A stretch of DNA of 62,196 nt from an uncultured Planctomycetia bacterium. Lineage in GTDB: Bacteria; Omnitrophota; Gorgyraeia; Tantalellales; Tantalellaceae. The stretch lies in assembly GCA_964527765.1 (NCBI GenBank), contig CAZGQR010000007.1, positions 38,100 to 100,295 of the forward strand, read 5' to 3'. Under the pieces are notes generated by a model. That model was not told where the DNA came from, did not search any database, and saw nothing but the letters and a program-made list of their open reading frames with translations. A program made the position numbers and the translations under genes. How positions within the stretch are numbered: position 1 is the stretch's first letter; each line of letters starts with the position of its first letter. This document shows positions 43,405 to 62,196 of this stretch, in pieces.

Positions 43405-43682
43405 AGTTCTTCGAGCTGACCATAAAAAAGCTTACAGGCGGCTTTTAGCATAATAACTTAAAACTGCCCGTATAGCCCAGCCCGTTCGAGATCAAAATAT
43501 ATATAAATATTTTTTCGACAATTTTAAACAATTTGAGCATATATATATGGAAGATGGGCGGTAGATTCGGCAGGTTTTCCTGTCAGCTAATGTTATTGGT
43601 GTAGGTGGTTTTTAGGGGGATCGCGTAAGGTTTGCCCGTGATCTTCTTGCTAATTCATGGCACAATACCTTATAATACCCAT

Positions 43683-43892
43683 ATGAAAAACTCTGATTTC
43701 AATAAAGAGTATGAAACGCTTAAAAGAAAATTCTCTATTCCCGACGGGGATAATTTAAAACAAATGCTCGCGACCGAAGAAGGGAAAAAAAGATATTCAG
43801 ATAGGGTAAAAAAGTGGGATAGCTTTAAAAAGAAGTGGAACATTGTATTTTTCCTTAAAGATAAACCCATTTTTAGAAAAAAATCACAATAG
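43683..43892 (+). CDS. small Lys-rich hypothetical protein, possibly leaderless
   Basis: TTGCTA, 18-nt spacer, TATAAT (43671-43676), with the ATG only 6 nt downstream. AT-rich. Confidence 0.35.
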   Translation: MKNSDFNKEYETLKRKFSIPDGDNLKQMLATEEGKKRYSDRVKKWDSFKKKWNIVFFLKDKPIFRKKSQ

Positions 43893-43961
43893 GAAAAAAG
43901 AGATCGGGAATACCCGGATTATGGGGGATATTTCTGGCGGCGGGACAGGAGGCACCGTACA

Positions 43962-44615
43962 ATGAGTGAGAGGAAGACAAAGGCGATAAAGAACATTGAA
44001 CAAAAGATGGAAGAGATGACCCCTGACAGTTTAAGATACAAGGTCCTTGAGAGCGCGAAGGATTTCAAGACGTCATGGATAGATCTGGGGCAGATCCTTT
44101 ACACGGTCTGGAAGGACAAGCTGTATAAAGATTGGGGATATAGTGAATTTGACGCGTTCACGTCAAAAGAGATAGGCATACAGAGGCAGACGGCCCTTAA
44201 ACTGCTCAGGTCGTATTCTTTCCTGGAGAGTTCAGAGCCCAGGTATCTGAAGAAGGATTATGTAGAAGGCGCTGCTGCCACGCAGGTGCCGACCTATGAA
44301 GCAGTGGATGTTTTGAGGCGCGCCAGTAATAACAAGGATATTGGGGAACGGGACTACTCGAAGATAAAGAAATATGTCCTTGAAGACGGAAAGGGCGCCC
44401 GGGACGTACAGAAAGATCTTACGAAAATTATCAGAGACAATGAACAGCTCGAGCCGGAAGAAAAGCATCAGAAGAAGAGGATCACGCGTCTGAGGCGCTT
44501 TTTAAGCCTCCTAAGGTCAATAAAAGTGGAGATCCAAAGCTCAAACGATCTGCCGGCAAAGATATCACTTCAGGCGGATAAGTTGATCGGGATGATCGAG
44601 GAGGAAGTGGGTTAG
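43962..44615 (+). CDS. hypothetical protein, possible DNA-binding
   Basis: RBS GGAGG. WIDLGQILYTVWKDKLYKDWGYSEFDAFTSKEIGIQRQTALKLLRSY is helix-turn-helix-like. No family was confidently recognised. Confidence 0.55.
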   Translation: MSERKTKAIKNIEQKMEEMTPDSLRYKVLESAKDFKTSWIDLGQILYTVWKDKLYKDWGYSEFDAFTSKEIGIQRQTALKLLRSYSFLESSEPRYLKKDYVEGAAATQVPTYEAVDVLRRASNNKDIGERDYSKIKKYVLEDGKGARDVQKDLTKIIRDNEQLEPEEKHQKKRITRLRRFLSLLRSIKVEIQSSNDLPAKISLQADKLIGMIEEEVG

Positions 44616-44646
44616 TAGATCCGGAGACACAAGAAAAGGAGGAAAT

Positions 44647-44841
44647 ATGGCTAATCTTATGGAAAGGGTAAAGAAATTCTCAGCTCCGATGTTTATTGTT
44701 TTTGTGCTTTCAAAGGTACTGGTTGGTATAGGCCTGGGGGTTTTGCTTGTTCAGTATCTTGCTCCGTACGGCTGGGCGATCCTTATAACAGGTGTGGTTA
44801 TATCATTTATCTGCATTCTCCTTGCTTTAAAGCAAGCGTAA
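44647..44841 (+). CDS. small two-TM membrane protein
   Basis: RBS AAAGGAGGAAA. Two hydrophobic helices. Confidence 0.5.
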   Translation: MANLMERVKKFSAPMFIVFVLSKVLVGIGLGVLLVQYLAPYGWAILITGVVISFICILLALKQA

Positions 44842-44864
44842 GGGCTTGCGGTGTGTCACCTTTA

Positions 44865-44889
44865 AACCGGTCGCAAATTGTGACCGGTT
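44865..44889. repeat. orphan ORF6N-type palindrome (AACCGGTCGCAA-A-TTGTGACCGGTT)
   Basis: 12-bp arms with one G-T pair. Lies between the stop of 44647..44841 and the stop of ORF6N copy 1. Related to the intragenic palindrome at 52653-52677. Confidence 0.75.
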
Positions 44890-44897
44890 CAGGACAA

Positions 44898-45434
44898 TTA
44901 ATCATGCTGAAAACCAATTCTGCGCTTTGGTTTTTCTGGCGGTGGCTCCATTAATCTACGAATTGCATCAAATATACTGCAAATCTCTTCATCATGTTCT
45001 TCGACTTTTCTTTCCAGTTCGCCTAGTTTATGCATCAGCTCCTTATGGGCAGAAATCATTTCCTTAAGCTTAACAAACACTCGCATAATAGCGATATTTA
45101 CCTGTATGGCTCGTTCACTATTCAATACACTGGAAAGCATCAGGATGCCATGTTCAGTAAATGCATATGGCAAATATCTCCTGCCCCCTCGTTTTGAGGT
45201 TTCAAATTGAAACCTCAAACTTTCGTCCTCTTTTTTGCTCAATTGGAACATAAAATCTTCAGGAAAACGACTCATGTTGCGCTTTACAGCCAGATTGAGG
45301 GACTTTGTCGGCACTCCATAGAGCTTTGCCAGGGTCCTATCCAACATCACTTTTTTGCCTCTGATCAGGAGTATTCTACTTTCGATAGTCTCCTGCGGAA
45401 CCAGACCTGCTGCCGAACTCTTCTTTTTAACCAT
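44898..45434 (-). CDS. ORF6N (KilA-N-like) domain DNA-binding protein, copy 1
   Basis: [46 protein letters not shown]...[34 protein letters not shown]...[20 protein letters not shown]. Confidence 0.85.
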   Translation of the reverse strand: MVKKKSSAAGLVPQETIESRILLIRGKKVMLDRTLAKLYGVPTKSLNLAVKRNMSRFPEDFMFQLSKKEDESLRFQFETSKRGGRRYLPYAFTEHGILMLSSVLNSERAIQVNIAIMRVFVKLKEMISAHKELMHKLGELERKVEEHDEEICSIFDAIRRLMEPPPEKPKRRIGFQHD

Positions 45435-45550
45435 AAAGACTCCTTACTTTTTACTTACATCAAAAACCCGGTCCTCCCGCGACCTGTTTATATAGACAAC
45501 TTTTTCACCTGAATTCTTTCAATCTTTTTCAGGGTGACCTTAAAAAGAGC

Positions 45551-46087
45551 TCATAGATCATGGCGAAACCCGATCCTGCGCTTCGGCTTTTCCGGAGGCG
45601 TTAATAACTGTTTTATGGCTTCAAAAACAACTTTGAATTGATGGTCATATTTTTTCTCCATATCCTCAATTTTTCGCTGCAGATCCGCATGCGTCAACAG
45701 CATTTTCCTTAGCCTGGTAAATACCCTCATGATCTGAATATTGACCAGTATGGCGCGCTCACTGTTTAGAACACTTGAAAGCATGGAAACACCTTGCTCC
45801 GTGAAAGCATAAGGCCTTCTTCTCAATCCCATTTTTTCTCGATTGGATATCACAATTTGTGATTTCCAATTTCCCACTTCTTCCTTAGTCAATTGAAACA
45901 TGAAATCCCCAGGGAAACGTGCTGTATTTCTTTTTACTGCCTGGTTTAATGTCCTTGTTTCTACGCCGTACAGCGCGGCCAAATCTCTATCAAGCATCAC
46001 CTTCTTCCCTCTAACCAAAAGTATTTTGCCTTCAATGGTTTCCTGCAGGACTAGGCCCGCCTCTGCCGATTTCTTCCTTTTTGCCAT
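45551..46087 (-). CDS. ORF6N domain DNA-binding protein, copy 2
   Basis: Same architecture as copy 1. Ends ...[21 protein letters not shown]. Confidence 0.85.
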
Positions 46088-46178
46088 GAAAACTCCTTGT
46101 CCTTTTGCGTAAAACCCGGTCCTCCCGCGACCTACCTATATAGACAACTTTTCCGCCTGAATTCTTTCAATTTTTTCA

Positions 46179-46290
46179 GGGTGGCACAAAAAGAGCATAA
46201 AACTGGCTGTCTAAGTTGGACGGTTCCAATATTAGCGAGCCCATCCGTCCAAAAATAGCATAAGTGGGCTTGCTGAGGAGGCTTGCTGGA
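46179..46290. repeat. junction motif GGTGGCACAAAAAGAGC plus conserved hairpin module (copy C)
   Basis: TTGGACGG (46216-46223) pairs with CCGTCCAA (46245-46252). AGCGAGCCCA and TGGGCTTGCT form a second complementarity. Homologous to 52223-52345 and 61309-61430. Confidence 0.8.
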
Positions 46291-46365
46291 TATTTGTGAC
46301 GCATAACTCTAATAAATACAACATATTACATCCCGTTAAGAATACAATACTCATCTCACTTTATG

Positions 46366-46394
46366 TTGACCTAACAAAGTGCAAATGCTATAAT
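46366..46394 (+). promoter_or_regulatory. sigma70-type promoter with extended -10 for giant ORF 2
   Basis: TTGACC (46366-46371), 17-nt spacer, TGcTATAAT (46386-46394). Confidence 0.6.
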
Positions 46395-46483
46395 AATTCA
46401 AGCTAGATAAAGGCAAACCTGTGGTGACATGGGGGCGCAAAATTAGGGGTCTAGAACTCAAAGGCATAAGTAATTTTAGACAG

Positions 46484-46521
46484 CCCGATTACCTGGAAAT
46501 GAGGTAATCGGGTTTTGTTTT
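46484..46521 (+). terminator. terminator-like hairpin inside the 5' leader of giant ORF 2 (candidate attenuator)
   Basis: CCCGATTACC (46484-46493) pairs with GGTAATCGGG (46503-46512), then TTTTGTTTT. Enclosed by AGGCATAA (46462-46469) and TTATGCCT (46520-46527). Confidence 0.5.
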
Positions 46522-46608
46522 ATGCCTGGGACACGAACTGATCATCTTTCCCCTAATAAGATGATTCAGTTCCCCAGGCAATAAAAAGAGAGAAGAAGCT
46601 AGAGAAAG

Positions 46609-49600
46609 ATGAGTAATTACAAAAATAGGCACAGGAAATGGATAAGGACCATAGCTATGGTCGTAGTGTGTCTGTTTTCCTCTATAAATATCACAACATA
46701 TGCGGATATAGCAGAGAGTACTTTAGCTCCAAAATTGCTTACGTCAAGCATAACTCAAAAAAATGATAGTGGAGTCGACACAAGAAAAGTGCTTTACCGC
46801 AAAGAAGGAGAAATAAATAAACTCTTTGATGCGGTATCAAGGGCGCATGAGATGGGGAAAAAGCCGGAGTGGGAAAAGGTCGGTAAAGAAGCTTCCCGAA
46901 TTAAGAAGAATTGGGTGGCCTGTTATATGGGGCCTTGGTTGGCGGAAATATATGCGGACCGAGTTGTCTCAGAAGACGAAGCCCTACATGCGCGGGAGGA
47001 TTTTCGTTTGAATTTCAAACAGGCCGTTGTCGGGATAAATAGGTCTCGGCAGGAGCCTATTCCAAACATGGATATAAACGATATACTTTTATATGCCGAT
47101 GAGGCGTTTAATACACTCATGAGATCAAGTTCCGATTCCGGATGGAAGCGACAACTCTCGCGGATCGAAATATGGGGATCGGAAAGCGCAGAGCATCTTA
47201 CTCTTTCCCCCGAGGGGGATGGCAGTATGGTTGTTATGGATGATAGTAAGCCTTTCAATGATGAGGAGATGAAGGTAGTTTATGAGGTGCTTGAGGAGAT
47301 TGAAGGATATTTAGAGGAATTAGGCTTTCCTGAGAATCATCCTAAAACCGGCGCGTCAATGAAACCGGATTACGAGCGATATGAGAATCAAAAACTGCCC
47401 GTATATAAAGTGATTTTACGCGCTTATGGCATGGAGGGATGGAATTACGAGTTTGAGAACATACACCAGGATGAGTATCCTCCGCTCATAGGCAAGAACG
47501 GGCAACCGCAACCAACAAGAAGTGAGATCATTAAAGTGATAGAACAAAAGTTCAAGGAAAGAGGCTGCATGGATTTCAGCGTGTCGTTGAACAGGAACAC
47601 GATCATCACGATAGTGAAGAAAGGTGTAACTAAGACCCGGGGCATCAGGAAACTTCTGGAAGAAGGGCCGGTAGTATATTTCGGTGATGAGACAGGGCTT
47701 GGAAATGACCGCGAAGTTTCAGAAATGGCTATAGGAGAAGATGCTCTTTTGACGGTAGGTCTTGATAAAAAGAAAAAAGTCGAGAAAAAAGAAAAGCCTT
47801 TCCCAAAAGGGGTAGCTTACACTGGTGGCTTGACCGAAGGGCTTAAGAAAGTGCTCAAGAGGTTCACCGAGATACTGAAAGAGAACAATACCGTAATGCC
47901 GGACAATAAGGCGATAGCCGAAGCTTTTATACAAGCGGTAAGGGATACGGCGGATTGGGCTTTACTGAAAGAGAAGGGTTATAGGGACGAGGTCGATAAA
48001 AAACTGGGATCTTTTCTGAAGGCGGCAAGCCGTTCAAAGAAGCCGATAAGTTTCGCGTTCGACAGCGACGGCACTCTTACAACCGGCAGAGGAGCTCCCA
48101 TCGATGAGGAAACGGGGAATATCCTGGCGGAGATGATGAGTTTTACCAAGGGTAAGATCGCGGTTTTGACGGGAAAGCTCAGGGAAGATCTTAGGGAATG
48201 CTATATACCTGACGATCTGTGTCTTATCGCGCATAAGAACAGCCTGATAACACGTGAAAGAAAAAGAGCTATCCCGGAAAAGTATCCAGGCACGGATGAA
48301 TTTGATGAATTTAAAAGAAAATATTTCGCTTGCTATACTCTTTTTGCCCATAAAGCAGTAAATGAATATATTAAAAGTCAAATTCCTCAAGAAGGCATAG
48401 AAGCTTTGCAGTCAAGAACTGACAAAGTTATTATTTCCGAGACTGAGCAGCAAGAAATTATTATTGTTGCCATTCCGGACTTATTAAAAAACACTGGTCA
48501 ACTCGCGCATATAGGACTAGGCAGCAGGAATGGCGTGCCCACTGCTTATGTCGATAGCACCTATTTTTACGATGAAGATGTGCTTGCTCATGAAAAAGAC
48601 GAGATTGCAAGTTGGGAGAGGAAAAGAAAAGAACTTGACCTTACATATAAGGAAATGCGGGAATGGATAAAAACAAATCCCGAAGCAAAGAAACTTGCCT
48701 CTGAATTTCATGCCTCTTCATATAGCCTGGAAAGCTCACATTCCCGAATTCAGGAAAAATACCAGAATCTATTGGATCTGGATAACATTTATGCTGCTTA
48801 TCTGGCCTATGGCTTCGATGTTGATGATAATGATGTGAATATCGCAGCCCATAAAAAGAAGAAAAGGGATGAGGCAATTTCTCCAGAGATAATAAAAATG
48901 GTTGTGGGTCAATGCCAGGGGATCGTACAAACGCTTGACATGTCGACCGGTGATAAATGCATAGAACGAGAGCTGAAAAAAATTAATAAGATTTTAAAAG
49001 AACGTCAAAATGACAAAGCGCTTATCTACGCACTGCTTGCAGTGGACATGTATGAAATTAATAAAGTTATCATGGACAATACCGATGACGATTCCTTATT
49101 TTTTTCAAACCCCATCCTTTTTGTGAACGACCACGTGAGAAAATCCGTTAAAGAGTTTGCAAGACAAATTAAAAATGCTGTTGCAAGCTATGAAAGAGAA
49201 AAATATTTTCCCGACAGTGACGTACGGGTTGTTGCCACTTATGCGGGGGGCATTGATAAAGATTTAAGATTCTTAAAGAAGAGCACTGACCAGATTTTTG
49301 AGATATTCCCTGAACTTCGAAGGGTTTTCTTGAATTTGCCAGCCATACTAATAAGGAATTTAAAATGGCCTCTTGCTGCATTTGATTGGGAAGGAGCAAA
49401 GACCATTAAAATATCAAAAGAGTTCCTGGACCTCGCAAAAAAGGATATTTCTATTTTCTACCTTCTGGGAAGTGCCATTGCGCATGAATTAGACCATGCC
49501 AGGTTTGACAGCAGTTATAAATTGGGAGACTTAATCGCATGGTCCGTTGAGTTTGAAAGGGAAGAGAAAAACCTTACTCCGATTACGCCAAATACTCTAA

Positions 49601-50889
49601 ACCCATTTGTATATTTTATGGAAATCTCGGCATGTTTAACAGATGCCAGATATACATTGACCCAAATGGAACGGCTAACGTCTTCCGAGCAAAAGGGTGT
49701 ACGAAAAAAGCTTAAATTACATATATCAAGAAATTTGGAAGGGGTAAAGTGCGCACTAAATGTCCTAAAAAGGCATAAAAAGGAAAAAATATTTACTAAA
49801 AAAGGTGAGCAATTACTTGTGGAGTATACCGAAAAACTGGATCAACTGGAAAAGGCATATGCAGATTCTCTAAAGAAGAAGACACCCACAGCTGTGGCTA
49901 AAAATGCTAAGGCGCGAAAAAAGGACAAAGGCTGTCCGGAGAAGCTCCTTGAGGATATCCGCAACAATGACATTCTACTGAGAAAGGCCCTAAGCGAAGA
50001 AGGCATATCAAGGCAGGAGATACTGGCTATCCGCGACTGGTCCGAGAGGACCGTGGACAGGGAAGTGGAGATCCTAAAGGCACTTGGCATATTTGTTCCT
50101 ATAGAAGAGAAGACCGGACATTACAAATTCAGCGATATGATGAAGGGTCCAAACGAAAATTACACTAAGACCATGATCAATGCAATAAATGACATAAAGT
50201 ACCAAGTTGGCCAAAAAGGCGAAGAAAGGCCGCTTAATCGCTACGATATCCCTAAAGATAAAAGACCTGCGGTAAAAGAGCTCATCAAAATGACTGTATT
50301 ACACCAAGCAAATCTCATGCAAAGGTCAGCTACCCTCGAGAATAAGGTTTTATGGCACATCATTGAACGTGACGTTTTATCTGACTCTCAAAAGAACTCT
50401 TTTGCTCAACAGATAAATACCGCATCAATGAAATCAGGTTCTCCTGAAAGAATATGGATCCTTAAAAGAGAGGAAACAATAAAAGAGGCTATCGCAAAAA
50501 TTAAGGCAATTTGTCCAAACGCTGTCTTCGACGTTGCTTTAAGCAGCCCGGATCATATAGAAAAAATACCGGCCCTGGAAGGGGAAAAAGAGATCAAAAT
50601 GCTTGTTTTTAAGGGGACAGCTGGAGATTTTAGTCAAATAGAGGGCGTAATAGCCGCTTTAAGGGCATTGCATCTCAAGAAAGAACAGGTCATACCGGCT
50701 CTTTTAAGAATATATTCAATTATGGCAGGGGCTCCCTATACCGGAGAGATCCCTTCGGAGGCCACACTGGAGGACGTAAGGGAATTCGCACGCAAGTTTA
50801 TATTTGACCTGCCGCCTGCAACAGAACTGCCTGTCGATGATATCCCGAAGCTTAACGAGAGACTAAAAGAGCTTCTTATAGCAGCTTAA
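46609..50889 (+). CDS. giant protein 2 (1426 aa) with N-terminal signal-anchor, HAD-like motifs and an HExxH motif
   Basis: 4.28-kb ORF. N-terminus NRHRKWIRTIAMVVVCLFSSINITTYADI. FDSDGTLT and GDETGLGNDRE. AIAHELDHARF (49483-49497). Tail ...LKELLIAA. Confidence 0.85.
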   Translation: MSNYKNRHRKWIRTIAMVVVCLFSSINITTYADIAESTLAPKLLTSSITQKNDSGVDTRKVLYRKEGEINKLFDAVSRAHEMGKKPEWEKVGKEASRIKKNWVACYMGPWLAEIYADRVVSEDEALHAREDFRLNFKQAVVGINRSRQEPIPNMDINDILLYADEAFNTLMRSSSDSGWKRQLSRIEIWGSESAEHLTLSPEGDGSMVVMDDSKPFNDEEMKVVYEVLEEIEGYLEELGFPENHPKTGASMKPDYERYENQKLPVYKVILRAYGMEGWNYEFENIHQDEYPPLIGKNGQPQPTRSEIIKVIEQKFKERGCMDFSVSLNRNTIITIVKKGVTKTRGIRKLLEEGPVVYFGDETGLGNDREVSEMAIGEDALLTVGLDKKKKVEKKEKPFPKGVAYTGGLTEGLKKVLKRFTEILKENNTVMPDNKAIAEAFIQAVRDTADWALLKEKGYRDEVDKKLGSFLKAASRSKKPISFAFDSDGTLTTGRGAPIDEETGNILAEMMSFTKGKIAVLTGKLREDLRECYIPDDLCLIAHKNSLITRERKRAIPEKYPGTDEFDEFKRKYFACYTLFAHKAVNEYIKSQIPQEGIEALQSRTDKVIISETEQQEIIIVAIPDLLKNTGQLAHIGLGSRNGVPTAYVDSTYFYDEDVLAHEKDEIASWERKRKELDLTYKEMREWIKTNPEAKKLASEFHASSYSLESSHSRIQEKYQNLLDLDNIYAAYLAYGFDVDDNDVNIAAHKKKKRDEAISPEIIKMVVGQCQGIVQTLDMSTGDKCIERELKKINKILKERQNDKALIYALLAVDMYEINKVIMDNTDDDSLFFSNPILFVNDHVRKSVKEFARQIKNAVASYEREKYFPDSDVRVVATYAGGIDKDLRFLKKSTDQIFEIFPELRRVFLNLPAILIRNLKWPLAAFDWEGAKTIKISKEFLDLAKKDISIFYLLGSAIAHELDHARFDSSYKLGDLIAWSVEFEREEKNLTPITPNTLNPFVYFMEISACLTDARYTLTQMERLTSSEQKGVRKKLKLHISRNLEGVKCALNVLKRHKKEKIFTKKGEQLLVEYTEKLDQLEKAYADSLKKKTPTAVAKNAKARKKDKGCPEKLLEDIRNNDILLRKALSEEGISRQEILAIRDWSERTVDREVEILKALGIFVPIEEKTGHYKFSDMMKGPNENYTKTMINAINDIKYQVGQKGEERPLNRYDIPKDKRPAVKELIKMTVLHQANLMQRSATLENKVLWHIIERDVLSDSQKNSFAQQINTASMKSGSPERIWILKREETIKEAIAKIKAICPNAVFDVALSSPDHIEKIPALEGEKEIKMLVFKGTAGDFSQIEGVIAALRALHLKKEQVIPALLRIYSIMAGAPYTGEIPSEATLEDVREFARKFIFDLPPATELPVDDIPKLNERLKELLIAA

Positions 50890-50901
50890 TCTTTATCTAT
50901 A

Positions 50902-51366: not shown

Positions 51367-51554
51367 TAAATCCTTCCTTGGTTCAGTTTTTATCTGCCAC
51401 ACTATTATAGACAACTTTCTCGCCGAAATTCTTTCATTTTTTTTGGGGTGACCATAAAAAGAGCATATAGAAATAAGAAGCAGGGTGGAACATCCGCAAG
51501 GAATATAGTATAATTGTATAGAAAATCGTAAAATAGGGCAGAAAGTCGCAAATA

Positions 51555-51890: not shown

Positions 51891-51928
51891 GATAAATTTC
51901 AAAAAAGCTATAACCACAAGGAGAAAAT

Positions 51929-52214: not shown

Positions 52215-52222
52215 TTATTTAG

Positions 52223-52345: not shown

Positions 52346-52437
52346 TTATAGAAAGTTCTGTCATTCCCGCGAAAGCAGGAATCCATAAGCCCGGTTATTG
52401 GTGTAGGTGGTTTTTAAGGCGCATTTTGGTCACCAGT

Positions 52438-53276: not shown

Positions 53277-56200
53277 GTGAAAAGAACAAAAAGACTTAAT
53301 TTCTTTAAAATAATATCTATTTTCCTTGTCCTCAGTTTCCCGTTCAATGACGCGGCCTTCGCGATACCGGAACTTTCCAATATGCAAAGTCCGTCAAGCC
53401 CGCTCCAGCCATGGACCTTTACTGATAATTTCCTTGTGAAGCGTGAAATACTCTCGGAACTATATAAAAGATCACGGCTAATATGGATCGCCAAATCGAA
53501 AAGATACCGCGATCTCCTGGAGCAACATAACGCCGGGGCGCTGCTCCTTCCTTCGGGCAGGTATTTGATGGCGCAAGAGACAATGAAGGACGACCTCTCC
53601 CTGATCAGCGCCGTTACCCATGAGGATTATGAGATACTCATGCAGCGCGAACAAAAATCAAAACCTGCCAGATATGAAAAAGTTATGAAAGAAGTCCTTG
53701 GAAATAACCAGATCAGGCGCGCTTATTTTTCGCTGCCCGGATGCGAAAAAGCGAGTGACAACGTGATTTTTAACGATCTGATCGCGAAGGGCTTCGAGCT
53801 TCTGTTCCTTGTTGAAAATTCCCTCGTCGATCCGCGGACAGAACTTTCCCCGGAAGAAAAAACATTTCTTAAGAATATACGACCCGTCCTGGAAGCAAGG
53901 GATAAAAAAGGCGCTTATGAGAATTTCTCTCCGGTCTTTTTTGACGTCACGGAAAGGTTAAAGACCGTAAAAGACGCGCAGGAAGACGCGGATCAAAGAT
54001 TTTATAAAAGCGCTTCTTCAAAGAGGCAAACGCCGGACAACGAACAAGATGCGTCCGACAAACGGTTCAAATCCATCCTGCGCGCTTTAAGGAAAAAAGG
54101 GTTTTATATCGCAGGGGCGGCTGTGGTGGGCGCGTTCCTGGCGCTGGGAAACGCAGCGGCGGAACCGACAAAGACACTGAAAGAACTTCCTTCGAATGAT
54201 GAAAAACTGCGGCTTATTTTTGAAAATGCTCAAGAAGGCAAATATTCCTACGCGACATTTTTTGACGAGCTCATAAAGATCGACGATTTTCGCGTGTTTA
54301 GATATCTCGCGGGGCTCATGGAAAAGCATGAAATGCCGGCCATTCGCGAGCTTGCTGTCGAAACCCTGGCACGGCTTAATGACGTACGCGGGCTCGGGCC
54401 GCTGTTAAGAGCAAAGCTTTACGATAAAGACCCCGCCGTGCGGAAAAAAGCGAAAGAAGTCATTAAAAAGTACGAATATCTGGACTCGCTCAGTGCCCTT
54501 ATAAATGTTCTTATACAGGAAGACGACCCGAACATGCGCGAGGAGGTCCTTGCCGCCCTGGAAAAGCTCGATGACCCGGAGGCAGTTGAAGCGCTTTACA
54601 GGTTAAAAAAATTCCGCTCCGAAGGGACGGGTCTGAGCCGGATGGAGGCGGAGAAGGTGCGTCAAAACGCCGAAAAAACCCTGAAAGCCCTGGAAAAACT
54701 GGATGTACCGCGGATAAAAGAAGCGTTATCGCTGCGTACTCTCCCCGGGGAAGTGAAGCGTGAATGGTGGGAAACAGCCCTTCTGGGGGCCATAGCGCTG
54801 TGCAGTTTGCTTATTTTCTGGAAGGTGTTTATCGGGATATATAGGTACCGCAGGCTGAAAAAACACCTGCGGCGCGCCGAAACCATAGATCAGCTCATTA
54901 AAACGATCAAGACGTACAGGGGCAAGGGAGGAGTGTTCACGGATTCCGCGATAATAGCGAAAGCCCGGGAGATAACGGATGGCCTTGCGGAAAAGGCGAA
55001 AACGCTGCAAGATCTTAGCGAAATCGAAAAACAATTAGAAGCATTAGAAAAGTGGTTTTCGTCAGACCACATATCGACGGTCAAGTCCGGGGAATTACAG
55101 TCCAGAAAGTGGCATCTAGAGCAGGTAAAAGTAACCGAATTGCGCACCGGGATGATCAAGCGTTTGCAGTCCGCCGAAACCATTGACGAGATCATCCGGA
55201 TAATCGAAGAAGACAAAGGGAGCAAAAAAAGTGTATTAACCGCCGAAGGCACAAGTAAAAGCATAACACCGCTTTTAACAACCGCTCTGGGAAAAATCAA
55301 AGATCTGGAAGACTTAATAAAGGTAGAAGAGAAAATAACAAGGATAAAAGGGTATTTTTCCTATGCTTCAAAATCCCTTTTCGCCCGGGATTTATTTCGA
55401 AAAAAAGAAGAAGAGTTCCTGCAAAAGGAGAAAGAGAGCTTTGCTTCAAAGTTGCGTTTGGCGGAAAGTAACGAAAAATTTGAACTGGTCTTAATGGAAA
55501 AACTTGAATCTGTCTGCGGCCACATCGATAAAGAACAGTTTTTCCTGAGAACCGCCATGGATCTCGCTCATACCTACGACAGGCTAAAGAGCGTTTGCGA
55601 GTTCAATCATACCCGGACGGGTTCAAATATCATAGGCGCCGGGGAAATAATTAAAAAGCTTGAATCGCTGGGGATCAAACCGTCCGACAAACAATTAAAA
55701 GCGTTTTTCATCGAACTGGTGTGGAAAGGCGCGGAAACGCGCGTTAAAATATTGCGGCAACTCGCCAAAAAATTCGACGAAGAGCGAAAGGCGGACAAAA
55801 AGCGAAAAGCGGATCGGGGTTTAACGGAATATGGCCGCTGGACCGATTACCTTTTCGGCGAAGACAAAGTCCCAAGAAAAAGCGCTGAAATCGCGAAACA
55901 AATAAAAGAGAACTTGTCCGGCATGGATATACCGCTCTTAGAAACAACCGCGCGCAAAGTAAGCTCTATGTCTACGGAAGAGGATGCCGCGACTCTCATC
56001 GAAATGTTCAATGCCATACACTTTGCCAATAAAATGGACGTGATCTTCAACCAAAACCGTCCGTACGCCAAGAGTTATGAAGAATCGAAGGACGAAAAGG
56101 ACCTTGATTTTGAGAATTATTGCGCTGGCCTGATCGAATCCTACGGCTTAATTTCCTTCAAGAATGAGGCCGGAAAGAAGGCGATGGTTGATTTTCTCGG

Positions 56201-58721
56201 CGGAGTAGCCGGAAACGGCCTTGATTACGCGGTTTATGTCAGGCAGGCGGCCGTTACCGCGCTCAGAAAGATCGGCGGCCCGGATGCGGAAACAGATGTT
56301 GAGAGCGTCATTGAAGATCCGGATATAATGACAAGAGAGGTCAGGGTAGAGAAGTGGCATTCGCAGGACAGGATAAAGCATGCGATCATTGACGGTCTTA
56401 AATTCGTGGCAGGCGAACAGGCCCTGCCCGGAACCGTGAAAGATATAGAGAATAATATAGATTACGTTTTTGACAGGATCCCGGGGCTGGTCGACTTTTT
56501 AAAAAAATACCCCTTGAGGTTATTCCGGATGAGAGACAAGCGGAAGATAGACTCGATCGTGCTCGGTGAGTTCAGAAAGTACTGGTTCAGGATACTCGGG
56601 TACGTATGGTTCTACGGCATAAGCGGCGGGGGCATGTTCGAGGCCTACAGGGAAATAGTGCTTCGACACCAGGATTCGCCGATAGACATGGGCGTGGCTG
56701 TTGAGCTTTTCACCAACAGGCATATTCTGGCAAGCGTACTGTATCATGAATACATGCATTACAAGGGTGAATTGAGCGAAGGCAAAACCCTTTTCAGGCA
56801 GATAAACTTCCTGAGAGAAATAATCGCCGGGGAAGGCCTTTCCGATCCTGCCGGAATGGCGAAAATGGAAAAACAGATCGCGGAGTGTATTACTGCGTTG
56901 GGATTATTGCCTCTTGGCCTGTTTCTCATGTTCCCGCACGATGAAAACTACAGAAAAAACCTGAACAGTTTCATATTATCGGCTTACGGTCCCGACGATA
57001 TGACAGACGCGGACATGCGCAAAGAAGCGGAAAGGATCATACAAAACGTAAAAGATTTCATCAACAGGGCGAACAAGAAAATAGAGATACAGAAACTTAC
57101 TGAACCTAACCTGCAATTCTACAAGCCCCTGACAGAAGAGCAGGAAAGCCAGATCATGACCTTCGTGAGGCTTTCCAAGCAGGTGAAAAACGCTGTCAGC
57201 GAAGCGGACTTCCGAAATATCCAGATAAACGACGAAAAAGCACTGGAATTATGGGAGGAATATCTGAAAAAAGGCGGCGGGTCCGTTTTAAAGTCGGACC
57301 TGATAGGCGACTTTGACTCGATCGTAAGGTGGGGACTTTCATCCGGCGGTATTCTGGACGGTCCCAAAAACCTTTTACGCGGCGACGTGAACGAACTGAC
57401 CGAGACCCATCCCGCGCTTGAAAAAGCCGCGAATGACGGCAGGATGTTCGCCGTGAGAGAGGACCAGGTCAGCAGCCTGCGCGAATCGGACAACGAGGCT
57501 CTGGCGTTGATCGTTACAGGGAACCTTGTCAATCTCAAGCACCCCGAGGGAACAAGAAACAAGATCCTCGAAAAGCTCAAGGACCCGATCTTCAGAAGGA
57601 ACATACTGGAAGGCCTGCGCATGATGAAGGATGCCGCGGGCGACCGCCTGCCTCAAAAGATACCCACCCGTTTATGCATAATCGTCGAAAAAGAAGACCA
57701 GCCAGCTGTAATATTCCGGGACAAAGACAATAATCTCATCGCTCATACCGGCAAAGGCTACAAGACAAACAGCCCCTATCATTCCATCTATGTCGGCTAC
57801 AGCGTGGTGGAATATGCCGCCGGCTCGGACAGGGAAGAGGACTTCAAAAGGATCATCCGCCATGAAATAAAAGATCTCCTGATCGGTCGTCATGATAGCG
57901 AGGACGAAGAGCTGGGAAAAATAGAACAATTTTACGACGATCTTATCTATGAACGATTGAAACATCTGAAACCGGTAGCGGACGCTTTTTATTATCTGGG
58001 AAAAGCGGCAAAAGAAACGGGTCTCAACAATTACACAAGCCGGTTAGGCGGCACTTGCCAGAAATCCTTCAACCGTTCGAACCTTCGGTACTGCATCCCG
58101 ATGGAAGTGTTCAAGAACGCGCCCGACGCTACGCTCGCATTGAAAAGGCTTGACATGCTAAACAATAAAAGAAGGGGGCAGGAGAAGATCGAACTTGAGA
58201 TCATCCTGACCGGCGTTACTGAGCATGACGAGGAATCGCTCGGCCGTTTCAACAGAAATGATATCAAGTGCGTGCTCGGGCTGCCTGACAACCTGAAGAT
58301 ATCCTTTATAAGATCGGAAGAAATGAGGTCGGCGGCAGAACGGACATTCAAAGATCTGAACAACCCATCAGACAGGATAGAAGTGATAAAATCGTTAGCC
58401 CTGCAGGTGAAGCCGCTCGCGGAAAACGAATATATGGCGATTGCTGAGGTCACAGGGAATGCCGATAGCATTGATCTTATAAGAGGCAAAACAGAACCGC
58501 AACTGGCAGACAACCTTTCATTAAGGGTGCTGGTCCGGCCGGAACGCGGAAAAAGCGCATTTTCGCTCGCCGCCGTAATAAACGGCTGGCTGAAAGAGCT
58601 TCACCGGGGCCGGACTTCCACGTTCGATGTTATCCTGCCTGTCATGATCTCTCCGCGTGAGATGATAGACCTTCTCGCTGAAAAAACGGAAAAAGCCTGG
58701 CGAATCTTAGCCTCAGCATAG
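53277..58721 (+). CDS. giant protein 3 (1814 aa) with N-terminal signal-anchor, two internal TM segments, HEAT-like repeats and an HExxH motif
   Basis: GTG start after GAAGGGG. N-terminus KRLNFFKIISIFLVLSFPFNDAAFAIPE. HEAT-like AIRELAVETLARLND...DPAVRKKAKEV...DPNMREEVLAALEKLDDPEAVEAL. VLYHEYMHYKG (56745-56759). Tail ...AWRILASA. Confidence 0.85.
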   Translation: MKRTKRLNFFKIISIFLVLSFPFNDAAFAIPELSNMQSPSSPLQPWTFTDNFLVKREILSELYKRSRLIWIAKSKRYRDLLEQHNAGALLLPSGRYLMAQETMKDDLSLISAVTHEDYEILMQREQKSKPARYEKVMKEVLGNNQIRRAYFSLPGCEKASDNVIFNDLIAKGFELLFLVENSLVDPRTELSPEEKTFLKNIRPVLEARDKKGAYENFSPVFFDVTERLKTVKDAQEDADQRFYKSASSKRQTPDNEQDASDKRFKSILRALRKKGFYIAGAAVVGAFLALGNAAAEPTKTLKELPSNDEKLRLIFENAQEGKYSYATFFDELIKIDDFRVFRYLAGLMEKHEMPAIRELAVETLARLNDVRGLGPLLRAKLYDKDPAVRKKAKEVIKKYEYLDSLSALINVLIQEDDPNMREEVLAALEKLDDPEAVEALYRLKKFRSEGTGLSRMEAEKVRQNAEKTLKALEKLDVPRIKEALSLRTLPGEVKREWWETALLGAIALCSLLIFWKVFIGIYRYRRLKKHLRRAETIDQLIKTIKTYRGKGGVFTDSAIIAKAREITDGLAEKAKTLQDLSEIEKQLEALEKWFSSDHISTVKSGELQSRKWHLEQVKVTELRTGMIKRLQSAETIDEIIRIIEEDKGSKKSVLTAEGTSKSITPLLTTALGKIKDLEDLIKVEEKITRIKGYFSYASKSLFARDLFRKKEEEFLQKEKESFASKLRLAESNEKFELVLMEKLESVCGHIDKEQFFLRTAMDLAHTYDRLKSVCEFNHTRTGSNIIGAGEIIKKLESLGIKPSDKQLKAFFIELVWKGAETRVKILRQLAKKFDEERKADKKRKADRGLTEYGRWTDYLFGEDKVPRKSAEIAKQIKENLSGMDIPLLETTARKVSSMSTEEDAATLIEMFNAIHFANKMDVIFNQNRPYAKSYEESKDEKDLDFENYCAGLIESYGLISFKNEAGKKAMVDFLGGVAGNGLDYAVYVRQAAVTALRKIGGPDAETDVESVIEDPDIMTREVRVEKWHSQDRIKHAIIDGLKFVAGEQALPGTVKDIENNIDYVFDRIPGLVDFLKKYPLRLFRMRDKRKIDSIVLGEFRKYWFRILGYVWFYGISGGGMFEAYREIVLRHQDSPIDMGVAVELFTNRHILASVLYHEYMHYKGELSEGKTLFRQINFLREIIAGEGLSDPAGMAKMEKQIAECITALGLLPLGLFLMFPHDENYRKNLNSFILSAYGPDDMTDADMRKEAERIIQNVKDFINRANKKIEIQKLTEPNLQFYKPLTEEQESQIMTFVRLSKQVKNAVSEADFRNIQINDEKALELWEEYLKKGGGSVLKSDLIGDFDSIVRWGLSSGGILDGPKNLLRGDVNELTETHPALEKAANDGRMFAVREDQVSSLRESDNEALALIVTGNLVNLKHPEGTRNKILEKLKDPIFRRNILEGLRMMKDAAGDRLPQKIPTRLCIIVEKEDQPAVIFRDKDNNLIAHTGKGYKTNSPYHSIYVGYSVVEYAAGSDREEDFKRIIRHEIKDLLIGRHDSEDEELGKIEQFYDDLIYERLKHLKPVADAFYYLGKAAKETGLNNYTSRLGGTCQKSFNRSNLRYCIPMEVFKNAPDATLALKRLDMLNNKRRGQEKIELEIILTGVTEHDEESLGRFNRNDIKCVLGLPDNLKISFIRSEEMRSAAERTFKDLNNPSDRIEVIKSLALQVKPLAENEYMAIAEVTGNADSIDLIRGKTEPQLADNLSLRVLVRPERGKSAFSLAAVINGWLKELHRGRTSTFDVILPVMISPREMIDLLAEKTEKAWRILASA

Positions 58722-58838
58722 ATCCGGATGATCCCCGCAGTTTGAGAAATTATTTAAAGAAAGCTATGGAGCGGGGGAGGAGTGTGGGTGTAAAATAGGG
58801 GTAGGAATTTAATCTTAAAAACGGCATAAATTACCCTC

Positions 58839-59852
58839 ATGGAAAAAATACGCTACGAACTCGACCCCTACAACCGCCTTATCCTCAATAAGGCCGGCAG
58901 GAAAGGGCGCCTTACGAAGTTCCGGAAGGTCCTGGACGGCCGGTTCAGGATCGACAGGAATAACACGCTTTCCTACCATGTAAAGGCCCCTTTATCCGGG
59001 AAAAAGAACATTCCCCATCAGATCAGACTGAAGGGTGAATGGAAGCTTACCGATGACCATGACCTCCGCCTTACCCTGGATAAGGAGGGGAGGGAGACCC
59101 TGGGGGATAAGATCACGCTTAGGGGCGAGATGCTGGAGGCAGGCAGGAATTCGCTCCTCTTCGCCGTCAGCACGAAAACCAGGGAAAATACCCGCCTCAC
59201 ATACGTCCTGGAGCTCGGGGGCTCCTGGAAGGCGGATAAGAATAACCGCCTGACCTTCCACGTAAAGAAGGAAAAGGGCAGGCATGATATCCTCACCTTC
59301 AAGGGCGCCTGGGAGATCAACAAGGACCACCAGATCATATACAACTATGAAAAGGCCGCCCTCATCAGGAAAAAGAAAGAGCTCCATACATTGACATTCA
59401 AGGGACACTGGGATATCAGGGACAAGTGCCGCATATCGTATGTATTAAGCGGGAGGACTGATTCTGCCTTTGATTTTAAGACGAGTGCCGGCGTCTTCAG
59501 GGATAATTATATTAAATACGAATTAGGGATAGGGTTGACTGGCAGAAAAGAGCCGGTAAAGCGGGCCGTTACTCTATTCGGCAGGTGGAAGCTTAAAAAA
59601 GGCACAGGGCTCACCTTTGAAGTGGAATACGGGGCTAAGAAGGTACAGAAAATAGTCTTCGGGGCGGAAGCCAAACTCACGGATAAAGACACGATCCTCT
59701 TCAAGCTCAGAAACGATACAGGCGCCAGGGACATAGGCGCGAGTCTGGAGCTTTCTCATAGAATATTAAAAGGCGACGGCGAAGCTTTCGTGCGTCTCCT
59801 TAGATCAGGCAGGGAATCAGCTATATACGCAGGGGCTGCCTGGAGGTGGTAG
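58839..59852 (+). CDS. beta-repeat hypothetical protein ending in an aromatic OMP-like tail (...YAGAAWRW), no signal peptide
   Basis: 337 aa with repeated LxFxGxWxLxxxxxLxF-type units. Both of its ends are duplicated elsewhere in the window. Confidence 0.75.
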   Translation: MEKIRYELDPYNRLILNKAGRKGRLTKFRKVLDGRFRIDRNNTLSYHVKAPLSGKKNIPHQIRLKGEWKLTDDHDLRLTLDKEGRETLGDKITLRGEMLEAGRNSLLFAVSTKTRENTRLTYVLELGGSWKADKNNRLTFHVKKEKGRHDILTFKGAWEINKDHQIIYNYEKAALIRKKKELHTLTFKGHWDIRDKCRISYVLSGRTDSAFDFKTSAGVFRDNYIKYELGIGLTGRKEPVKRAVTLFGRWKLKKGTGLTFEVEYGAKKVQKIVFGAEAKLTDKDTILFKLRNDTGARDIGASLELSHRILKGDGEAFVRLLRSGRESAIYAGAAWRW

Positions 59853-59981
59853 GGTAACTTTAGGAGGCGGGGGAAATAAATTGGAAAAGTACTTTATCAA
59901 GTGTATAATAAAATAAAGAACGGGTTAGAGTCGATCTTGGGATTATCCCGATAAATTACCACAAAAAGGGGGAAATCTGAT

Positions 59982-61145
59982 ATGAAATACTTAAAGAATT
60001 TAATTATATTTTTATTAATATTGAATGTTGCAACAGCTGCAGAAAGCAAATCGAAATATGCTCCATTTTCAGATAAAGCATATATTAAAGAAAATATTAG
60101 CGAAATCGGGATACTTGTCTCCGGTTTAGACACTCGTACTTTGCAGTACTTACTGACACTATACGACAAGGCATATAAATTAAAAACTAAACTTTATCCC
60201 ACATTACAAGGCGTTTTTTTAGCTATTAGAGACGGGTCTTTTAGAGTTTTTGATGACGGGGTTTCACCTATTCCTAGTTCCAAATTGATTAGTGGTGGTG
60301 GGACTGTATATGCCGGAATAAACAGCGATATTGCAGATGTTATTTCACGCAGTTTAAATGATCGAGGCTATGAATGCACTTATCTAAACCCAAAGGAGTT
60401 CATGAAAGATTATTATAACAAAAATACACTATCTGAAATAATCGATATTGCAAAACAACATATGCCGGAATTGGATGCGATTATATTTGTATTTTATACT
60501 GCATATGATAGTATTTCCCAGGGCAATATGATCCACAAGGGTCTTTTTGTATGTGCAGATTGTGTAATGTTTAGTACAGGTGAAGATAAAAAACGATTAT
60601 ATATAGGACAAGTGACAGCGAGTCCGTATGGTCTTCCTGAAGATCAACAACAGATTTATACAGTTAAAGATGCCCTTGGTTTTAAATCTCAAAGAATGGG
60701 TTTTACTCCGAGCGATGTGTATAAACTATTTCTTTCGGATTTATCACGCGAATTTTCGGATTCTTTTGACAAAACAGAAAAACAAACAAAACAAGTGTTT
60801 GCCGCGAATGACAAAGCAAAAAAACAAGTGTTTGCCGCAGTTAAGAATAAAAAACTCGCTTCTGAATTAGAGAAGTTGGTCAAGTGTGCTGATGACAACA
60901 CCGATAATTTCGAAAGCCTGGATCTGGGCGTAAATACAAGAGGTGGGCAAGAGATCAGAGTAAAAATAAAATCATCTGTATTATTAGAATTACCCGAACT
61001 TATGAAAAAATTGGACATTAAAGAAGACTCTTATGCGATGGAACAAATACATAGAAGAGAGTATGTTAAATTTATTGTGGACGTTTCCAGTGGAAAGTAT
61101 TCTTTTGATTACTCTTTGAGAAGCAGCAGTTTCGGAAGGTTCTAG
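59982..61145 (+). CDS. secreted hypothetical protein on a markedly AT-rich cassette
   Basis: RBS AAAGGGGGAAA. Signal peptide MKYLKNLIIFLLILNVATAAES. Composition is visibly more AT-rich than its surroundings. Confidence 0.7.
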   Translation: MKYLKNLIIFLLILNVATAAESKSKYAPFSDKAYIKENISEIGILVSGLDTRTLQYLLTLYDKAYKLKTKLYPTLQGVFLAIRDGSFRVFDDGVSPIPSSKLISGGGTVYAGINSDIADVISRSLNDRGYECTYLNPKEFMKDYYNKNTLSEIIDIAKQHMPELDAIIFVFYTAYDSISQGNMIHKGLFVCADCVMFSTGEDKKRLYIGQVTASPYGLPEDQQQIYTVKDALGFKSQRMGFTPSDVYKLFLSDLSREFSDSFDKTEKQTKQVFAANDKAKKQVFAAVKNKKLASELEKLVKCADDNTDNFESLDLGVNTRGGQEIRVKIKSSVLLELPELMKKLDIKEDSYAMEQIHRREYVKFIVDVSSGKYSFDYSLRSSSFGRF

Positions 61146-61160
61146 CGCCAATTTCATCTC

Positions 61161-61232
61161 GAGGCCTTCGTGCGCCTCCTTAGATCGGGCAGGGAATCAG
61201 CTGTCTACGCGGGGGCTGCCTGGAGGTGGTAG
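61161..61232 (+). repeat. direct repeat of the last 72 bp of gene 58839..59852 (copy 2)
   Basis: Encodes EAFVRLLRSGRESAVYAGAAWRW-stop, versus 59781-59852. In frame with the TAG stop of 59982..61145. Confidence 0.85.
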
Positions 61233-61308
61233 GGCTACAGGGACTGTCCCCACCCAAACCATATGCATCCTGGGGGACTGTCCCTTAAGAGGGTAGAGTT
61301 TGTTTTAG

Positions 61309-61430
61309 GGTAACCATAAAAAGAGCTTATAGGTGGCTGTAAAGTTGGACGGCTCCGGGTCTAGCAGCTGATCCGTCCAAAAACAGCATTAGTGGGCTTG
61401 CTCAAGGGGGCTAGCGGGGTTTTTGGGGGG
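61309..61430. repeat. junction motif GGTAACCATAAAAAGAGC plus conserved hairpin module (copy G)
   Basis: TTGGACGG (61345-61352) pairs with CCGTCCAA (61373-61380). Confidence 0.8.
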
Positions 61431-61447
61431 GCATTTTGGTCACCAGC

Positions 61448-61954
61448 TTAATCATGGTGGAATCCTATCCTACGCTTCGGTTTCTCTGGTGGTGATTCCA
61501 TTAATTTTTTTATGGCTTTAAAAACGATTTGAAACTGGCCGTCATATTTCTTTTCCATGGCTTCGATTTTTCGTCTAAGGCTTTCATGCGTAAAACCTAT
61601 TCTTCTCAAGTTCACAAAAACTCGCATGATTTGAATATTCACCTCAACTGCTCTCTCACTGTTAAGGACACTTGAAAGCATAGCGATGCCCTGTTCAGTA
61701 AAAGCGTATGGCACGTATCTTCTGCCGCCCCAACTTGAGGTCGCAAATTGCGATTTCAAGTTCGTAACTTCTTTCCTGGTAAGGGGAAACATAAAATCTT
61801 CGGGAAATCGTTTTAAATTCCTTTTAACCTGTTCATTTAAGCGACTGGTAGGAACACCATAAAGTTCCGCCAGGTCTTTATCCAGCATCACATTTCTGCC
61901 CCTTACCTGGTAAATCTTATTTTTCACGTTATTTGCTGAAATAATTTCCTTCAC
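61448..61954 (-). CDS. ORF6N domain DNA-binding protein, copy 5
   Basis: GTG start after GGGAGGA. ...[35 protein letters not shown]...[34 protein letters not shown]...[11 protein letters not shown]. Confidence 0.85.
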
Positions 61955-62078
61955 CTGGATCCTCCCTTAGATCTAAACACACATTGTATTCACTGCCTTT
62001 ACTTATACAGACACCGTTTTTCCAAAAATTCTTTCAAAATTTTTTCTATTTTCTTATAATATAGAAAGGGTAGGGGGC

Positions 62079-62136
62079 CCTCCTTAGATCGGGCGAGGAA
62101 TCGGCTGTCTATGCAGGGGCTGCCTGGAGGTGGTAG
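62079..62136 (+). repeat. direct repeat of the last 58 bp of gene 58839..59852 (copy 3)
   Basis: CCTCCTTAGATCGGGCGAGGAATCGGCTGTCTATGCAGGGGCTGCCTGGAGGTGGTAG. Confidence 0.8.
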
Positions 62137-62196
62137 AATGCTTGAACCGGTTTCATCGAACGAAGTTCTGGAAACCGGTTTAGAACATAATATTTA

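Follow-up and report, generated by a model that had tools for sequence, protein, structure and literature searches.

Single-gene candidates for anti-phage defence have been gathered into PDC families through 'guilt-by-embedding', that is, by their embedding in type I restriction-modification (R-M), BREX or DISARM loci, and one representative of PDC-S05, described as a RhuM-domain protein, cut the plating of phages T7 and T5 about 1000-fold. Phage anti-repressors of the ORF6N, Rha and KilA-N type form a second group of relatives of the genes considered here. At the level of genome architecture, variable regions can be exchanged through flanking homology, as in the 'minimal mobile elements' of Neisseria and at defence-island hotspots; at the level of regulation, operators located in coding sequence, such as lac O2 and gal OI, cooperate with upstream operators by DNA looping. 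Here we analysed 62,196 nucleotides (nt) of DNA from an uncultured bacterium of the Omnitrophota (the window; positions 38,100 to 100,295 of contig CAZGQR010000007.1, assembly GCA_964527765.1), in which ORF6N genes recur as units with shared flanks. We favour, as moderately probable, the reading that this region is native Omnitrophota chromosome turned into a strain-variable mosaic and punctuated by diverged paralogues of one small gene family. That degree of confidence applies jointly to a native stretch grading into a defence island, to autoregulated ORF6N genes of the PDC-S05 type, and to promoter and terminator flanks that serve as homology for the gain, loss and truncation of cassettes.

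The window carries five ORF6N genes on the minus strand (c1 to c5), all of which match PF10543 (E 1e-22 to 6e-37; 77.5-126.2 bits, with a gathering threshold of 27.8 bits). An annotation made earlier from the letters alone, hereafter the original prediction, had proposed these five genes and the state of each, and both stand: c1, c2 and c5 are intact; c3 is 3'-truncated, its alignment covering residues 1-136 of 178; and c4 is internally deleted by ~29 codons plus 1 nt. Absent from that prediction is a scar at 25858-25991, directly upstream of a giant open reading frame (ORF) of 3153 amino acids (aa), which represents an internal deletion and not a clean excision. The array runs on beyond the window end with a further copy, c6, and more hairpin modules of the kind described below.

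Full-length matches to the PADLOC PDC-S05 model PDLC04856 were obtained for c5 and c2 (E 3.5e-60 and 9.9e-59; profile positions 2-175 of 177). Furthermore, c6 adjoins type I R-M genes in one haplotype (L013) or genes for a PIN-domain protein, a HigB-like toxin and a PD-Lambda-2_B-like protein in another (L002). The locus differs from the described PDC-S05 setting in that at least seven diverged copies, several of them dead, lie within ~40 kb, most of them interleaved with non-defence resident genes and giant ORFs and not placed in a defence operon; c1 to c5 do not stand beside recognised defence genes, and the published active representative is described as a RhuM-domain protein. We regard the ORF6N genes as a candidate anti-phage family, with a putative defence function suggested by these profile matches. 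The N-terminal domain also matches phrog_4792, 'anti-repressor' (E 3e-30), and the intragenic palindrome described below is shared by 67 of 89 phage-borne relatives. Unlike the phage anti-repressors, the window proteins belong to a chromosomal subfamily of 165-180 aa with a coiled-coil tail that is spread over many phyla, and they lack a prophage context. No tRNA is present in the window, and an integrase and phage structural genes are missing at the locus, which does not qualify as an integrative island or prophage. At E <= 1e-20 the family comprises at least 8000 proteins from many phyla, and GTDB species genomes yield >600 matches at 51-71% identity. Tight tandem arrays of two to four copies are common in other phyla, and the c1/c2 tandem is typical of the family in this respect.

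A sequence search for relatives with solved structures returned none. The AlphaFold model of c5 (predicted local distance difference test score 73) gave weak matches, the best at E 0.07, all of which were winged-helix-type DNA-binding folds (Ski/Dachshund DHD, MarR, GntR); a long C-terminal helix follows the winged-helix-like part, and no catalytic fold was matched. The model suggests that ORF6N is a winged-helix-like DNA binder, not a recombinase.

On the ORF6N sense strand, a complete unit reads J - leader - ORF6N - J' - module - J. The junction motif J (GGTNACCWTAAAAAGAGC) has five exact plus-strand matches, at 45533, 51447, 52223, 52947 and 61309, with 0.43 expected by chance, and 0 of 100 shuffles reached six matches; a variant with an indel (GGGTGGCACAAAAAGAGC) stands at 46179 and a degenerate copy at 43415. 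The leader core (TATAGACAAC...) was matched four times, with 0.12 expected, and is degenerate at c5. Hairpin modules occupy 46214-46300, 52257-52343 and 61342-61428, J' (GCATTTTGGTCACCAG) lies flush against the stop codon in both c4 and c5, and a short scrap is present at both 43592-43616 and 52394-52419. The original prediction had named the shared leader, the positions of the junction motif, the module in three places and the recurring scrap, and all of them were recovered.

Alignment of nine good module copies defined a ~125-nt core that always ends at GGTNACC. In the short form, J' abuts the core, and in the long form a ~85-nt extension is present. In minimum-free-energy folds, the basal stem is formed by J' (GGTGACCAAAA) pairing with its inverted repeat J (TTTTTATGGTCACC); the module encloses nested stems of unvarying sequence (AGC, GCTGT, TTGGACGG), its apical loop varies freely, and a T-run (CTTTTTAT) comes after the hairpin on the ORF6N sense strand. 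Given this layout, the module is probably the 3' hairpin or terminator of the ORF6N gene. The leader core (TTGAAAGAAT..AAAGTTGTCTATA) is found ahead of ORF6N genes in further Omnitrophota genomes as well (L004, L006, L007, L021 and L029); therefore, it is the regulatory region of the gene itself and not the terminus of an element, and J is no more than a unit's tail, with the leader of the following unit directly behind it. Neither the module nor the palindrome matched an Rfam 15 family: over the units, the search stayed empty at the gathering threshold and also with E values up to 1 admitted. A small protein encoded by the module was ruled out, the short ORFs at 52215-52364 and 46176-46304 being in different frames with unrelated peptides.

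Further hairpins and repeats accompany the units. The hairpin at 50909-50935 shares a GGACGGATC..CCGTCC stem with the module hairpin and may be a module remnant. A small hairpin repeat of the GTCATTCCCGCGAAAGCAGGAATCC type is inserted in some long-form modules (window ~52355-52394; L002 3395-3440) and recurs in another genome, where it stands downstream of an ORF6N gene (L004 2900-2985); it looks like an independent small repeat family. In L007, a 78-nt repeat containing the leader occurs at 9856-9933 and 10692-10769 (96% identical), preceding an ORF6N gene and then the next gene pair (122 aa and a helix-turn-helix (HTH) protein), with a partial third copy at 11528-11571. Its layout is cassette-like and its surroundings are housekeeping genes.

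Comparison of paralogous units placed their strongest conservation outside the gene. Mean identity is 83% for J plus leader and 80% for module plus J, as against 66% for the full coding sequence and 61% for its first 300 nt. The flanks are more conserved than the gene, which is the reverse of ordinary decaying duplicates, and this pattern fits functional constraint or gene conversion, together with use of the flanks as recombination homology.

In co-occurring strains, two haplotypes match the window exactly, part from each other ~140 nt beyond its end and have c6 in common. Upstream of c6, the L001/L013 haplotype has a type I R-M operon, with c6 within ~1.5 kb of it; the L002/L017 haplotype has HigB, a PD-Lambda-2_B-like HTH-M78 protein (E 3e-38), radical-SAM genes, an exonuclease and a solo module. 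Moreover, L002/L017 contain an extra PIN_3/80-aa/flavodoxin block with module and J that is lacking in L001/L013. The right side of the mosaic would, with fair likelihood, merge into a defence island. Between haplotypes, c6 is 98-100% identical, identity drops to 85-88% in leader, J and hairpin, and it collapses right after J'; therefore, the exchange points lie in the unit flanks. The proposal of a mosaic built around a repeated ORF6N unit holds in that these strains vary at unit boundaries, but we found no evidence that the unit itself moves. In L013, a 179-aa ORF between hsdM and hsdS of the haplotype-specific type I R-M system (6078-6617, minus strand) has no Pfam, PADLOC or PHROG match.

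Contig ends tend to fall at unit repeats, the window stops ~140 nt short of the haplotype fork, and contigs of 1-2 kb hold many of the family members, all of which a repeat-induced assembly artefact would produce. Nevertheless, 16 contigs give the same order and sequence for c1 to c3, and several further contigs span c4 to c6 in the same arrangement, from independent samples and assemblers (JGI, ENA MEGAHIT and Logan); a single JGI contig of 62,197 nt corresponds, in its entirety, essentially to the window. The possibility of an artefact, which the original prediction had itself raised, is therefore exceedingly improbable.

The locus resembles regions exchanged through flanking homology in that its cargo is strain-specific, its flanking repeats are conserved, breakpoints fall in the flanks, and no dedicated recombinase was found. 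It differs in the source of the homology, which here is a selfish or defence gene repeated as a unit within the region and there two unique conserved housekeeping genes. The same features can be read as an integron-like, site-specific cassette array, in which J (TTTAGGGTNACCATAAAAAGAGC), with or without the module hairpin, would be the recombination site of a recombinase encoded elsewhere, and cargo and ORF6N genes would be the cassettes. Every module finishes in J and every leader follows one, always at the same position and with at least four different contexts on the right, and an invariant-stem, variable-loop hairpin adjoins it. Furthermore, the strain indel of cargo, module and J is bounded by direct repeats of module plus J, and solo copies of module and J occur without an ORF6N gene (L002 5905-6042, L017 3440-3640). 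Repeated hairpin boundary elements between unrelated blocks, solo copies and strain-level cassette indels are likewise shared with integrons and clusters of attC sites lacking an integrase (CALINs).

Several properties of J and the module nevertheless make such an array unlikely. No integrase, transposase or recombinase, including IntI, was recognisable among the tested window ORFs, as had been noted before, or in the ~20 kb of haplotype extensions. In exact-pattern scans, the module had no match in 185,579 GTDB species genomes or in IMG/VR, and the four contigs matched in JGI metagenomes all represent this locus in its two haplotypes; the same pattern matches every local copy. J likewise had no match in IMG/VR, the sole collection scanned for it as a pattern. 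The boundary element is conserved in sequence (copies 62-90% identical, mean 80%) and not only in structure, unlike attC. It is joined at GGTNACC with no GTTRRRY core, and the R''/R' GTTRRRY arrangement is lacking at the boundary; the GTTGGAC/GTCCAAC stem is internal, the opposite arrangement. The cargo of the window has its own promoters and includes very large genes, and the element is private to one locus. In addition, the point at which the haplotypes part upstream of c6 is within the leader and not at J. The joints are ragged, not razor-sharp: the J copies at 51447 and 52947 still have ~10 nt of module tail on their left, and solo J copies have kept CTAAAT on their right, where CTGAAAAA of the leader would stand, so that J is surrounded by decayed remnants. 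The original prediction had entertained a mobile or recombining unit with its own junction and had stated that occurrence of the units at this locus only would speak against it. Within the scans, J and module are in effect confined to this locus. A mobile unit is not borne out, given the lack of a recombinase, the ragged joints, a leader that is a regulatory region and a module known from a single locus.

The inverted relation of J' and J raised a further possibility for the origin of the module, namely a non-autonomous element resembling a miniature inverted-repeat transposable element (MITE) or a repetitive extragenic palindromic (REP) sequence, which split a palindromic operator downstream of ORF6N into J' and J and was then copied passively with the units. 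J' (CTGGTGACCAAAATG) and J (TTTTTATGGTCACC) form terminal inverted repeats that flank the module, and they resemble halves of intergenic palindromes such as AACTGGTCACAAATTGTGACCAGTT; this half-site resemblance is short (~8 of 12 positions) and judged by eye. An unsplit palindrome is kept after the c1 stop codon, the c2/c1 joint has J abutting the stop codon with no module, and the module is polymorphic in length, with another small hairpin repeat inserted into it. However, the scans described above revealed no dispersed module copies, a target-site duplication was not definable, and no cognate transposase is known, so we consider this origin improbable.

Every ORF6N gene carries, in the part of its coding sequence that specifies L(R/K)SQ(F/I)(A/V/G)TS, a palindrome of 27-31 bp (TTGARGTCRCAAWTTGYGACYTCAA), and this holds across many phyla. 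In 99 copies (85 distinct), a mean of 10.97 of 12 positions form Watson-Crick pairs, compared with 8.34 (maximum 8.79) when arms are shuffled among sequences. The arms extend over 13-15 nt, with 13.0 of 15 pairs formed, compared with 6.5 (maximum 7.0) after synonymous-codon randomisation. Positions 4, 5, 7 and 8 show covariation of multiple types, and the palindrome is kept by co-varying amino-acid pairs (S-A, S-V, C-G, F-G and R-T/K-I); the encoded residues form a low-confidence loop in the c5 model. An mRNA hairpin was ruled out as the cause of the palindrome, the mismatches showing no sense-strand G.U bias (15 G.T, 31 A.C, 56 other). Outside coding sequence, 24 palindromes were found in 728 kb, nearly all of them 40-350 nt upstream of ORF6N starts or between tandem copies, with as many as seven following one another in L010 (2000-2510) and a further array in L009 (9640-9990); some phage-borne relatives likewise have a copy 26-131 nt upstream of the start. 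In the window, the palindrome lies inside each of c1 to c5 and once in non-coding DNA.

Together, these results suggest that the palindrome is probably the operator of a dimeric ORF6N product, with one site within its own gene. As with lac O2 and gal OI, the site occurs both upstream of the gene and ~200 nt inside it. The difference is that the ORF6N site, whose binding is putative, is embedded in the gene of the regulator itself, always at the same codons, and is kept across phyla by co-varying amino-acid pairs. In the searchable literature, no paper gives the palindrome sequences or describes an ORF6N operator. Two narrower ideas were rejected. Inspection ruled out a self-specific operator, in which the upstream palindrome would match the internal one of the same gene, as the inner bases often differ (L062, L093, L034 and L009). 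An origin of the c4 deletion at the palindrome was also discarded after an intact LVTxC-type homologue placed the deletion ~35 nt downstream. Alternatively, the palindrome could be a cis-acting recombination or 'homing' site and the ORF6N units palindrome-guided cassettes that spread across phyla and nucleate variable and defence islands, with the catalyst supplied in trans or by a so far unrecognised ORF6N activity. We hold this to be quite unlikely; if true, it would amount to a new kind of gene cassette. Directly upstream of the ORF6N gene and palindrome array in L009, ~7 kb (2953-9970) have no ORF of at least 150 aa and no called genes, at an ordinary GC content of 0.42-0.53.

A number of observations weigh against the reading we prefer, in which the units are ordinary genes whose promoter and terminator flanks provide homology. 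A simple terminator scan did not call the module, whose loop and bulges exceed the limits of the scanner; the module stems are invariant on both strands, so covariation cannot back the fold; and the terminator role is a prediction from sequence. Flank conservation could reflect gene conversion or recent spread of the flanks rather than function. The difference between L001 and L002 is not reducible to one clean crossover between two modules, and the right end of J does not shift from copy to copy across at least four contexts, which also fits a site-specific joint. Exact pattern matching would let diverged module copies elsewhere escape. Furthermore, the window's own leaders are without a good copy of the family palindrome, and the phage-active PDC-S05 representative, with its RhuM-type domain, may not be a close relative of the window ORF6N.

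Table 1 Features of the ORF6N array and its surroundings (window coordinates)
Feature	Position	Strand	Remarks
ORF6N scar	25858-25991	-	Last ~28 codons fused to distal leader half and J-like end
Decayed long-form module and degenerate J	43405-43620	-	Left array edge, directly 3' of cspA terminator
Three small genes (86, 217 and 64 aa)	43632-44841	+
Non-coding palindrome AACCGGTCGCAAATTGTGACCGGTT	44865-44889	.	11/12 pairs; just past c1 stop codon; architecture as family palindrome
ORF6N c1	44898-45434	-	Intact, 178 aa; intragenic palindrome 45193-45219
c1 5' untranslated region (5'UTR), leader and J	45435-45550	-	Leader 45487-45532; J 45533-45550, abutting c2 stop codon
ORF6N c2	45551-46087	-	Intact, 178 aa; intragenic palindrome 45843-45869; PDC-S05 match
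c2 5'UTR, leader, J variant and solo module core	46088-46300	-	Leader 46136-46178; J variant 46179-46196; module core 46197-46300
Promoter, riboswitch match and 1426-aa ORF	46366-50889	+	ORF 46609-50889
Bidirectional terminator hairpin AAGGACGGATCCACAAGATCCGTCCTT	50909-50935	.	Between 1426-aa ORF and truncated c3
ORF6N c3	about 50956-51366	-	3'-truncated; intragenic palindrome 51122-51148
c3 leader and J	51367-51464	-	Leader 51403-51446; J 51447-51464; ~10 nt module tail (..CTATATGCTC) kept
DenV-like pyrimidine-dimer glycosylase and 55-aa membrane ORF	51555-52096	+	Glycosylase 51555-51890; membrane ORF 51929-52096
Gene X 5' duplicate	52098-52210	+	First 113 nt, 92% identical
c4 3' flank	52223-52437	-	J 52223-52240; module core; REP-like hairpin insert ~52355-52394; extension/scrap 52394-52419; J' 52421-52437
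ORF6N c4	52438-52873	-	'LVTxC'-subtype pseudogene; intragenic palindrome 52653-52677
c4 leader and J	52874-52964	-	Leader 52904-52946; J 52947-52964
1814-aa HEAT-repeat ORF, then intact gene X	53277-59852	+	ORF 53277-58721; gene X 58839-59852
AT-rich cassette	59855-61159	+	387-aa ORF with signal-peptide-like N-terminus; between gene X 3'-end copies 59780-59854 and 61160-61234
c5 3' flank	61309-61447	-	J 61309-61326; short-form module core; J' 61431-61447
ORF6N c5	61448-61954	-	Intact, 168 aa; PDC-S05 E 3.5e-60; intragenic palindrome 61734-61760
Degenerate c5 leader, third gene X 3' fragment and hairpin	61955-62196	-	Leader to ~62063; fragment 62064-62138; hairpin 62144-62181

The genes between the units had been described as unrelated cargo, which is partly right: the DenV-like gene named among them is confirmed by a Pyr_excise match (E 3e-29), but gene X and the 217-aa and 55-aa proteins are conserved Omnitrophota genes (Table 1). 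Gene X encodes 337 aa and has 685 homologues, the best 120 of which are 63-73% identical, nearly all 337 aa long and, where named, all from Omnitrophota. The backbone order TrkA-TrkH...CSD...gene X is common to the window and L181. In L183/L184, a giant gene (>3500 aa) with no detectable homology to the giant ORFs of the window lies directly upstream of the gene X orthologue, and the 217-aa orthologue (62% identity) adjoins a truncated ORF6N; a 55-aa orthologue (40% identity, L183) is found just downstream of gene X. Pieces of gene X itself are duplicated in the window. The copy of its 5' end begins 2 nt past the stop codon of the 55-aa ORF and is cut 12 nt before J, and its 3' 75 nt recur at 61160-61234 (91% identical) and 62064-62138 (75% identical), so bracketing the AT-rich cassette and the c5 unit. 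These duplicated ends are best explained as partial copies that recombination anchored in gene X would leave behind.

Each of the three giant ORFs (3153, 1426 and 1814 aa, starting at 26144, 46609 and 53277) is immediately preceded by a divergently oriented ORF6N unit or scar (intervals 25858-26150, 46165-46420 and 52935-53285), and their promoters are related (TTGACCTAAC..GCTATAAT). The ORFs are not paralogues, as BLASTP similarity is limited to their N-terminal signal sequences. Such an arrangement would also follow if ORF6N proteins were divergent regulators of adjacent giant genes, with leader and J as the common control region and the repeats as a duplicated regulator-promoter-gene module, a notion to which the related promoters and the alike signal sequences lend some support. 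However, of the three ORF6N copies beside the giant ORFs, two are dead (the 25.9-kb scar and pseudogene c4), c1, c3, c5 and c6 flank unrelated genes, and across phyla the family occurs in many contexts and in tandem arrays; we judge this explanation very unlikely. For the 1426-aa ORF, a strong promoter (TTGACC-17-TATAAT, 46366-46394) is followed by a plus-strand match to the c-di-GMP-I-GGC riboswitch (RF03167, 46403-46497; 59.3 bits, gathering score 59) and an accompanying terminator-like hairpin (46482-46514), which suggests second-messenger control of this giant gene. Within the 3153-aa ORF, tandem repeats with a period of ~282-297 nt extend over 28700-30900 in up to eight copies (60-83% identical).

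Other repeats lie elsewhere in the window. Two copies of a 44-nt repeat are 82% identical, one (42901-42944) at the start of a match to the cspA thermoregulator (RF01766, 42912-43400) and one (14858-14901) upstream of an unannotated 390-aa ORF. Direct repeats of 83 nt (3808-3890 and 5220-5302) containing GGGAC..GTCCC palindromes bracket a GT87 glycosyltransferase gene; the bracketed ORF (3895-5208) was thereby ruled out as a transposase. A short palindrome, GGGACNGTCCC, recurs between genes in the window (61243-61253 and 61275-61286), in L002 (~5880) and in another Omnitrophota genome, L004 (~3005), and may be a REP-like element.

We propose the following mechanism for the preferred reading of the units as ordinary genes with reusable flanks. 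Each unit consists of its own promoter and putative operator region (the leader), the ORF6N gene and a 3' flank in which J' and J form the base of a long hairpin. A dimer of ORF6N would bind the palindrome inside and upstream of the gene and so regulate its own expression, possibly via DNA looping. Units would duplicate in tandem, and the conserved unit flanks, together with resident genes such as gene X, would offer the homology through which sister units or incoming DNA could recombine with them. Such recombination would insert, swap or delete blocks between units, leaving truncated units, solo modules and duplicated gene ends behind.

On this account, what appeared to be a new mobile unit is re-read as an ordinary gene with its own promoter and probable terminator that, once multi-copy, would become portable homology for the swapping of blocks between strains, and the locus would provide a concrete case of variable and defence islands shuffled without a dedicated recombinase. 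For the family as a whole, a coding-sequence palindrome kept by co-varying codons and amino acids is a trait not previously described in this very large candidate defence family and a clear example of selection at the nucleic-acid level shaping protein sequence. It also supplies a testable binding site and a regulatory model for the PDC-S05/ORF6N proteins.

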